IMG/VR virus record: IMGVR_UViG_2690316156_000013
Location: 1 to 4,465 of that record
Reading direction: 5' to 3' (one strand)
From: a virus
Lineage: Duplodnaviria > Heunggongvirae > Uroviricota > Caudoviricetes
DNA: 4,465 nucleotides
Below, piece by piece: positions 1,166 through 1,944 of the stretch. The stretch's first letter is position 1; every line of letters starts with the position of its first letter. The notes beneath the pieces are model-generated. The model was not told where the DNA came from, did not search any database, and worked only from the letters and a program-made list of their open reading frames with translations. The position numbers were made by a program, and so were the translations under genes.

Positions 1166-1944
1166 GCGAAATTAACTCTCAGGCACTGCGTGAAAAGGCA
1201 GAGAAAGCAACTAAAGGAAGCTACATCGTAGGGCATACATCTGTTAACCAACACGGCAATTTAACAGGAGTTTTTGTTTGTCAAAAATGGAAAGGAGAAC
1301 CCGGTGGCGTAATTGCAGAATGTCACGTTAACTGCCTGGTTGAAACAGATGCTCAGGCTTATGCAAACGCTGAATTCATAGCAGAGGCTAACCCGGCTAC
1401 CGTGCTGGCACTGCTGGATGAACAGGAAAGAAACCAGCAATACATCAAACGCCGCGACCAGGAGAACGAGGATATTGCGTTAACGGTAGGGAAGCTGCGC
1501 GTTGAGCTTGAGGAGACAAAATCAAAACTCAACGAGCAGCGTGAGTATTACGAAGGTGTTATCTCGGATGGGAGTAAGCGTATTGCTGAACTGGAGAAAA
1601 TCGCCACTGACTATGCACTGAAATTTCAGAAAGCCCAGGACGCATTAAAGTACGCTGTTTTGCTGCGCAAATCAGGGCAGGAAGCACGGGAAATAAAACC
1701 AGCCAAAGGCGAAGTTCTTGTCGTTGTATCTGGTTTTACTGGTTGCGGAAAAAGCGCCATCGCCGGGGAAATAGAAATCGCGATGAAGTCTATTGGTGTA
1801 CCGGTTAAGTGGACTAATGGCGATGCGGAAAAGCGCATGACAGGAGCTGACTGGCTGACAGCGATTGAGATGTACAAACCAACAGTGCGCATCGTGGAAG
1901 TTAATGTGCCACGCGCTGCTGGCATTCGCATCAAAGGAGAGTGA
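1162..1944 (+). CDS. ea22: Ead/Ea22-like protein, enlarged variant (260 aa) with central coiled-coil and distinct C-terminal module
   Basis: GTG start at 1162 overlaps the upstream stop as GTGA, with AGAGG 5 nt upstream. The N-terminus MSEINSQALRE, the heptad-rich charged segment (LLDEQERNQQYIKRRDQENEDIALTVGKLRVELEETKSKLNEQREYYEG...) and the C-terminal ...GIRIKGE all resemble my recollection of lambda Ea22. Lambda Ea22 is shorter (about 182 aa), so this is a mosaic variant. Confidence 0.75.
   Translation: MSEINSQALREKAEKATKGSYIVGHTSVNQHGNLTGVFVCQKWKGEPGGVIAECHVNCLVETDAQAYANAEFIAEANPATVLALLDEQERNQQYIKRRDQENEDIALTVGKLRVELEETKSKLNEQREYYEGVISDGSKRIAELEKIATDYALKFQKAQDALKYAVLLRKSGQEAREIKPAKGEVLVVVSGFTGCGKSAIAGEIEIAMKSIGVPVKWTNGDAEKRMTGADWLTAIEMYKPTVRIVEVNVPRAAGIRIKGE

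Follow-up and report, generated by a model that had tools for sequence, protein, structure and literature searches.

A putative mini P-loop module at the C-terminus of an Ea22-like phage protein belongs to a widespread, unannotated domain family

We analysed a 4,465-nucleotide stretch of a Caudoviricetes virus record (IMG/VR IMGVR_UViG_2690316156_000013, positions 1 to 4,465; this whole stretch is referred to as the window). It represents the exo-xis (early-left) region of a lambdoid prophage and is oriented along pL transcription. Between a DksA/TraR-type zinc-finger gene and a DUF551-related gene, the window encodes an ea22-like protein identical to WP_057109287.1 (annotated as 'ead/Ea22-like family protein'), whose C-terminus carries a putative mini P-loop module that recurs in hundreds of other proteins (Table 1). 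Gene order places the gene in the exo-xis early-left position typical of Ead/Ea22 genes, and residues 2-145 of its product match the Pfam family Ead_Ea22 (PF13935) with an E-value of 1.1e-40 and 139.9 bits against a cut-off of 27, in agreement with an initial annotation, made from the sequence alone, that had recognised an Ea22 homologue. The same annotation had pointed to GFTGCGKS at nt 1732-1755, an exact G-x4-GK-S match behind a hydrophobic stretch with about 60 residues following it. The motif indeed occupies aa 191-198 directly downstream of EVLVVV and is followed by 62 residues, and the peptide quoted at the time, VLVVVSGFTGCGKSAIAGEI, corresponds to aa 185-204.

Comparison with lambda Ea22 places the module in an exchangeable part of the protein. 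BLASTP aligned the two proteins across aa 1-145 (E 4e-41, 54% identity in the aligned part), where homology ends at ...SKRIAELE; beyond aa 145 there is no similarity to lambda Ea22, and hence no lambda-type C-terminal domain, except in the last 8 residues, AGIRIKGE, with which both proteins end. The linker of aa 146-182 is not conserved among module-bearing proteins and has no lambda counterpart. Because homology stops at aa 145 and resumes in a 30-nt junction at the 3' end of the gene, the C-terminal domain has been exchanged between two conserved junctions, with the putative P-loop cassette taking the place of the lambda-type domain between the shared coiled coil and that junction. Such an exchange fits earlier work describing Ea22 as a constant scaffold whose C-terminal domain can be swapped (PMC7093339, PMC10834534). 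Whether lambda Ea22 itself has the motif, a question left open in the initial annotation, can now be answered: the 182-aa lambda protein contains no Walker A sequence, and its C-terminal domain is unrelated. A PDB sequence search with the full ea22-like protein returned nothing significant. All Ea22 proteins are reported to end in a K/RGE tail (PMC7093339). Its coding sequence here is AAAGGAGAG, a Shine-Dalgarno-like sequence for the next gene, and conservation of the tail may reflect a translation signal and a recombination junction rather than protein function.

The module itself comprises about 70 residues whose predicted elements follow one another as strand, Walker A loop, helix, strand, loop, helix and strand (Table 1), so that the motif sits in a separate C-terminal unit and in the strand-loop-helix setting that had been proposed for it. 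Outside the P-loop, module alignments show a nearly invariant AGEIEI in helix alpha-1, and in the main family the E, K, T, D and W of the loop EKRMTGADW are invariant or nearly so. The initial annotation had seen no convincing Walker B motif, a statement that needs correction. The hhhhE element VRIVE, which leaves 14 residues after Glu246, is a good candidate: Glu246 is invariant in alignments A1, A3 and A4 (main family), and the position is E or D in every relative examined, the corresponding elements of distant members being TIRLIE (StM171), VIRLEE (PhiKM), IKIVE (RSL2) and VTIID (Ea35-70 gp033).

Table 1 Features of the window and of the ea22-like gene product
Feature	Nucleotides	Strand	Residues	Evidence or remark
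exo C-terminus	1-210			
lambda orf60a (DUF1317) and orf63 (DUF1382) homologues				after exo C-terminus, before orf61-like gene
orf61-like gene				between orf63 (DUF1382) homologue and zinc-finger gene
DksA/TraR-type zinc-finger gene (zf-DksA/TraR)	944-1165			
ea22-like gene	1162..1944	+	260 aa plus stop	GTG start
Ead/Ea22 part	1162..1596	+	1-145	PF13935; BLASTP vs lambda Ea22
N-terminal Ead/Ea22 domain			1-77	44-residue insertion relative to lambda
Coiled coil			78-145	nearly identical to lambda Ea22 residues 28-101
Variable linker/helical segment, coiled coil to module	1597..1707	+	146-182	
Putative mini P-loop module, GEVLVVVSGFTGCGKSAIAGEIEIAMKSIGVPVKWTNGDAEKRMTGADWLTAIEMYKPTVRIVEVNVP	1708..1911	+	183-250	common core of 437 clusters; alignments A1, A3, A4
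EVLVVV, presumed strand beta-1 into loop	1711..1728	+	184-189	V.V pattern conserved
Walker A / P-loop, GFTGCGKS	1732..1755	+	191-198	GGT TTT ACT GGT TGC GGA AAA AGC
Helix alpha-1, KSAIAGEIEIAMKS, from Walker-A lysine	1750..1791	+	197-210	both AlphaFold models
VPVKW, presumed strand beta-2				in module, before NGD
NGD, after presumed beta-2	1816..1824	+	219-221	hhalign: aligns with DGD (DxD) of APS kinase and related kinases
Conserved loop EKRMTGADW	1828..1854	+	223-231	alignments A1, A4
Helix alpha-2, GADWLTAIEMY				entered from conserved loop EK-x2-T-x-ADW; then Y-x-P
VRIVE, presumed beta-3, candidate Walker B	1885..1899	+	242-246	Glu246 codon 1897-1899; then N-x-P
Junction	1918..1947	+		30/30 nt identical to lambda ea22 3' end (DNA alignment); encodes AGIRIKGE plus stop
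AAAGGAGAG, Shine-Dalgarno-like, for next gene	1933-1941	+		read directly from sequence
DUF551-related gene	1946-2374			ATG 1946
DUF4222 gene	2459-2701			
Excisionase gene	2860-3096			
Tyrosine integrase gene	3152-4465			

In a single sequence, a P-loop motif is weak evidence and no more than chance would provide: among 200,000 shuffles of the window protein, Gx4GK[ST] arose in 1.3% and the stricter GxxGxGK[ST] in 0.09%. Conservation was assessed with an exhaustive HMMER search of aa 174-260 against 1.84 billion cluster representatives (50% identity), which recovered the module in 437 clusters at E <= 0.001 and in 343 at <= 1e-10, with a common core of ~72 residues. The pattern G..G.GK[ST] is kept in 145 of the 148 listed representatives, the three exceptions having a single substitution or being truncated. 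The looser G-x4-GK[ST] survives in all 17 divergent members; across the alignment of these members, which reaches down to ~30% identity, the G, G and K of G-x4-GK[ST] and the terminal acidic residue are kept everywhere while the other module motifs decay. At the nucleotide level, comparison with the related locus L089 gave a proportion of synonymous differences (pS) of 0.84 and of nonsynonymous differences (pN) of 0.05 at 91% amino-acid identity; more generally, synonymous sites are saturated in relatives that are 89-91% identical in protein, and the ratio of nonsynonymous to synonymous substitution rates (dN/dS) is ~0.06 where dS can be estimated. Together, the comparative conservation and the pS and pN values show the module to be a functional domain under strong purifying selection, neither coincidence nor remnant.

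These data bear directly on the possibility that the motif is a chance PROSITE-type match or a functionless, decaying fragment of a captured kinase gene; the initial annotation had raised both a chance match and a degenerate or remnant module. The shuffling frequency and the short stretch behind the motif are what such an origin would produce; the breadth of the family, the invariant Gly/Lys/Ser-Thr loop, the occurrence of the module as stand-alone genes and the saturation of synonymous sites at ~90% protein conservation are not, and we give this explanation next to no credence. Conservation and selection rule out a chance motif. A complete NTPase (nucleoside triphosphatase) is ruled out in turn by the size of the module and by stand-alone forms of 76-87 aa, which agrees with the earlier remark that the module is too short for one.

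The module behaves as a mobile unit with respect to its host proteins. Among the 148 listed representatives it occupies the C-terminus of 128, the N-terminus of 13 and an internal position in 7, and its fusion partners are mostly unrelated to each other and unannotated; of 75 scanned against Pfam, nine matched Ead_Ea22, two Lar, one DUF4406 and a few zinc fingers, the remainder being unmatched. Searches with tblastn and genome scans located it in phages phiV10, D6 (P1-like), JL22 and Yersinia fHe-Yen8-01, at the N-terminus of Burkholderia BcepC6B gp37, internally in the Ralstonia/Burkholderia jumbo phages RSL2, RSF1 and SURPRISE13, and further in Stenotrophomonas StM171, Escherichia PhiKM and the Erwinia jumbo phage Ea35-70. 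Prophage regions of Serratia, Mangrovibacter, Methyloversatilis, Pandoraea, Methylobacterium, Mesorhizobium, Brevundimonas and a Stellaceae metagenome-assembled genome (MAG) encode it as well, which gives a host range across Alpha-, Beta- and Gammaproteobacteria. Stand-alone modules are encoded in a Burkholderiales MAG (L181:1359-1589, 76 aa) and in Mesorhizobium (L185:2974-3237, 87 aa). Scans of viral contigs for related loci returned almost only close relatives, and a word-index search with the RSL2 module gave no candidates.

The genomic contexts are the lambda exo-xis region, P1-like phages, jumbo phages and sites beside DUF551-, Lar- and methylase-type genes, together with a Mu-like early region (L182) in which, from open reading frame (ORF) translations, the module lies upstream of a GemA-like ORF. 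In all of them the module is found in early, non-essential regions, and from this placement its role is probably in host takeover or in decision-making early in infection. No conserved neighbouring partner gene was found around the stand-alone or fused modules at the loci examined. Start and stop codons of the stand-alone genes overlap those of their neighbours, which include DUF551-like, Lar-like, methylase and integrase genes; a further stand-alone copy of about 84 aa is present around 2998-3252 of L183, a Methylobacterium prophage region. Very distant relatives carry the module at the N-terminus of longer proteins (L191:1501-1980, Ea35-70 gp033; L190:2492-3868, StM171; L192:1477-2205, PhiKM), and Ea35-70 gp033 combines GPIQAGKT with a classical hhhhD element (VTIID).

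Profile comparisons relate the module to P-loop kinases. When 38 diverse modules were compared with Pfam, weak matches were obtained to APS_kinase for 33 (best E 5e-5) and to AAA_16 for 34, and a PDB sequence profile search returned mainly P-loop proteins, all sub-threshold, among them UvrA, ArsA, gluconate, APS (adenosine 5'-phosphosulfate), shikimate and cytidylate kinases, the designed phosphate-loop protein 6c2u and the designed ATPase 9jix. One relative is labelled 'ATP-binding protein' by NCBI. In an hhalign profile-profile comparison with E. coli K-12 proteins, CysC reached a probability of 96.1% (module aa 187-226 against CysC 29-68; 40 columns, 14/40 identical by our count, NGD under DGD), followed by GntK (84.6%), AroK (78.2%), Cmk (about 54%), AroL (about 50%), Tmk (15.5%), MinD (11.7%) and Adk (first 108 residues only, 2.6%), while four non-P-loop controls scored 1.2% or less. 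CysC, GntK and AroK/AroL are kinases that we take to form the 'DxD-group' of P-loop kinases, and by this measure the DxD group contains the closest known relatives of the module. The hhalign alignments cover the homologous N-terminal strand-Walker A-helix-strand unit of these kinases; nothing aligns beyond module residue ~44, and the module has no counterpart of the kinase lid, of strands 4-5 or of the regions that bind substrate and adenine. The DxD position is also unconserved, being NGD in the window and DGD, DSE, GGD, ADA, DRD or NEQ in relatives. The module resembles the phosphate-binding core of a kinase yet falls outside the DxD group. A 519-aa protein of a Dehalococcoidales MAG has, at L189:3001-3057, an almost identical Walker-A neighbourhood, SGLTGCGKSAVAGEL, followed by what appears by eye to be longer P-loop-kinase-like sequence, and may point to the type of kinase from which the module came.

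Kinship with kinases, the invariance of both catalytic-core motifs, the classical hhhhD of one distant member and a few nucleotide-related fusion partners such as DUF4406 would all suit a genuine minimal enzyme, an oligomer that hydrolyses ATP or GTP or transfers phosphate in a kinase-like manner with Walker A and with Glu246 as its Walker B residue. However, the lid, strands 4-5 and the region that binds substrate and base are all missing, and the DxD position, which kinases require, varies. Neither an arginine finger nor any further conserved catalytic element is evident, and the predicted structures show no active-site geometry. We consider a minimal enzyme unlikely.

Several results leave a P-loop assignment unconfirmed. 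No curated model exceeded its threshold on the window protein: the best hit, Pfam APS_kinase, reached 14-16 bits against a cut-off of 21.1, and AAA_16, ParA and the NCBIfam APS and gluconate kinase models all remained sub-threshold. AlphaFold2 was run on aa 178-260 with 38 aligned modules and on aa 181-253 with 59, the alignment rows being module segments cut from proteins found in the homology searches; mean predicted local distance difference test (pLDDT) scores were 82.8 and 83.6, and predicted template modelling (pTM) scores 0.70 and 0.71, respectively. Neither model contains a beta-sheet or calls EVLVVV a strand, no fold match to either was obtained in the PDB, and the three-layer alpha/beta/alpha architecture of the P-loop NTPase superfamily, with five or more strands in a parallel sheet of the order 2-3-1-4-5 or 5-1-4-3-2, is absent. 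The Walker A sequence does lie between a hydrophobic stretch and a helix N-terminus, with helix alpha-1 beginning exactly at Lys197 in both models (helix 20-33 in model 1, 17-30 in model 2), although the preceding EVLVVV is not modelled as a strand. A structural check proposed with the initial annotation thus came out divided: the motif is not buried in a non-P-loop fold, and the P-loop fold is unconfirmed by the models, which give no help on this point.

In both models, three all-hydrophobic stretches remain unpaired at high confidence, which suggests that the module may form its sheet between chains. An inter-chain sheet would fit the tetramers formed by the Ea22 proteins studied (PMC10834534, PMC7093339), the existence of 76-aa stand-alone modules and the behaviour of designed P-loop polypeptides that work only as oligomers (bioRxiv 10.1101/2020.07.30.228619). 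Tetramerisation and a pro-lysogenic phenotype are established only for lambda and some Stx (Shiga toxin)-phage Ea22 proteins (PMC10834534, PMC7093339). The same unpaired stretches would be expected if another protein supplied the partner strands, and they lend themselves to an interaction or oligomerisation head in which a P-loop-like sequence is kept for folding or for host-protein docking, for instance by strand addition, with no phosphate ligand. Other Ea22 C-terminal domains are dimeric and have been proposed to contact host proteins (PMC10834534), and the module has invariant residues outside the loop as well (GEIEI, EK..T.ADW, Y.P). Against such a head stands the pattern at the widest divergence, where absolute invariance is confined to the residues for binding phosphate and metal (G, G, K, S/T and the acidic residue at the strand tip) while the other motifs decay; a purely structural loop would have no need of Lys-Ser/Thr. 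On balance this seems to us rather unlikely.

The explanation that we favour, with about an even chance of being right, is that the module is a mini P-loop core, an oligomer-dependent head for binding phosphate or nucleotides that is displayed on the Ea22 tetramer. What the analysis shows is the motif and the boundaries of its domain, their conservation and the selection on them, the exchange of the cassette and a sequence similarity to kinases. The autonomous mini-domain would keep only the catalytic-core elements of a P-loop protein, namely a strand, Walker A, helix alpha-1, a second strand, the conserved loop with its helix, and a third strand ending at E246. In the simplest kinase topology, 2-3-1-4-5, these would be the counterparts of strands 2-3-1 with one helix per face, the helix placement being what crossover rules predict. 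Phages shuffle the module, as a cassette, among numerous proteins of the early region, and the coiled coil, or self-association in the stand-alone forms, would bring several copies together so that neighbouring modules could pair and complete a sheet. Lys197, Ser198 and the loop amides would then bind the phosphate of a ligand, and Ser198 and Glu246 would coordinate Mg2+. We infer the fold, the dependence on oligomers, the binding of a ligand and any part that the module might play in the lysis-lysogeny balance.

Candidate ligands would be a nucleoside triphosphate (NTP) or other nucleotide, polyphosphate or a nucleic-acid backbone. Because base-binding and lid elements are missing, generic or weak binding of nucleotide or polyphosphate, or use of a partner, is to be expected instead of efficient catalysis, and the module would be a ligand-binding effector or sensor head rather than a stand-alone enzyme. 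Were the backbone phosphate of single-stranded DNA (ssDNA) or RNA the main target, multivalent P-loops might affect replication or recombination. Designed beta-(P-loop)-alpha polypeptides do bind ssDNA through the P-loop and release it on binding NTP or polyphosphate (bioRxiv 10.1101/2020.07.30.228619), and the gene occupies a recombination and early region beside exo, with Mu-like and P1-like early regions elsewhere. The surroundings of helix alpha-1 are acidic (GEIEI), however, the sequence offers no basic surface and the module matched no nucleic-acid-binding family, and we judge a nucleic-acid ligand quite improbable. A PADLOC scan matched the module to no defence system. The literature searched contains no paper that links Ea22 to a P-loop, ATP binding or anti-defence, and it yielded no experiment on Mg-NTP binding or hydrolysis by any member of the family.

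A more far-reaching version of the mini P-loop core, which we regard as doubtful, would make the module the smallest P-loop domain in nature. With ~70 residues, Walker A and Walker B included, it would fold and bind NTP, polyphosphate or nucleotide signals only as an oligomer, a living counterpart of the laboratory P-loop prototypes, deployed by temperate and jumbo phages, alone or fused, as a multivalent early effector that binds or sequesters ligands. If the module truly binds phosphate ligands, a three-strand P-loop core can be stable and useful in nature, and work on minimal P-loop protein evolution would gain a natural test case with hundreds of sequences. It would also provide a mutable handle (K197, S198, E246) on one class of Ea22 C-terminal domain in the lysis-lysogeny decision. 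The domain family defined here had been hidden under 'ead/Ea22-like' or 'hypothetical' labels in E. coli, Salmonella, Shigella, Serratia, Burkholderia-type, Methylobacterium and jumbo-phage genomes.

Several further observations concern the locus. At 1162-1165 (GTGA), the GTG with which the ea22-like gene starts and the TGA that ends the zinc-finger gene overlap, which suggests translational coupling. Minus-strand ORFs overlapping 1626-2013 were rejected as mechanical in view of the hundreds of homologues of the plus-frame protein. Between the orf61-like and zinc-finger genes lies a GC-rich hairpin with a T run behind it (868-892); it is the sole terminator-like site in 800-2500, and N antitermination presumably allows read-through. 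A scan for promoters and terminators gave nothing inside the ea22-like gene, and Rfam identified no RNA family in the window. The 142-aa product of the DUF551-related gene matches DUF551 only over its last 16 residues (profile positions 1-16 of 68) and looks like a truncated DUF551 fusion, and a 27-aa hydrophobic ORF, MSWPDAIVTLGVVFAAAFVVFSICRWG (2371-2454), overlaps the stop codon of that gene (ATGA). Among complete E. coli genomes of the collection, the best coverage of the window in one place was 64% and none had >=80%; widely shared lambdoid segments make this region a mosaic. The one place in the literature searched where a P-loop and Ea22 occur together concerns a different gene: in Variovorax phage VarioGold, a 98-aa 'P-loop ATPase' (VG_p38) is encoded at a distance of four genes from an Ead/Ea22-like gene (PMC9658991), and tblastn did not pick up VG_p38 as a relative of the module.

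Set against known systems, the window protein shares with lambda Ea22 and the Stx-phage Ea22 variants V1-V3 the exo-xis position, the N-terminus and coiled coil, the architecture of a scaffold with an exchangeable C-terminal domain and, relative to lambda, the AGIRIKGE tail and 30-nt junction. It differs in a C-terminal domain unrelated to that of lambda, solved by nuclear magnetic resonance (NMR), and to DUF551 and the other Stx variants described; no described lambda or Stx Ea22 variant carries a Walker A motif (PMC7093339, PMC10834534). Three PHROG clusters, phrog_11761, phrog_250 and phrog_31825, contain the module (E 8e-18, 2e-11 and 7.5e-09 with the C-terminal 91 aa), but they carry no annotation, do not delimit the module and do not note the P-loop. 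Pfam has no model for the module, PHROGs places it in families of unknown function, and the gene is known only as Ead/Ea22-like.

With the kinases CysC, GntK and AroK/AroL (PF01583 and relatives) the module has in common a strand, the sequence G-[LF]-[ST]-G-[SC]-GKS-[AT]-[IV]-AG, a helix ending in LG or IG, a second strand and xGD. These kinases are 170-200 residues long, of which only the first ~40 have a counterpart in the module, whereas the C-terminal 30 residues of the module (EK..T.ADW...Y.P.V.I.E) are unique to it. The P-loop prototypes (6c2u, 6c2v) and the designed ATPase PL2x4_2 (9jix) are likewise very small and built on a single strand-P-loop-helix core. Designed beta-(P-loop)-alpha polypeptides of 40-110 residues bind NTPs, polyphosphate and ssDNA and act as oligomers, and the prototypes function only as dimers or higher oligomers that bind generic phosphate ligands (bioRxiv 10.1101/2020.07.30.228619). 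Unlike these laboratory constructs, the module is a natural family that is under purifying selection and has an extra presumed strand with a Walker-B-like Glu.

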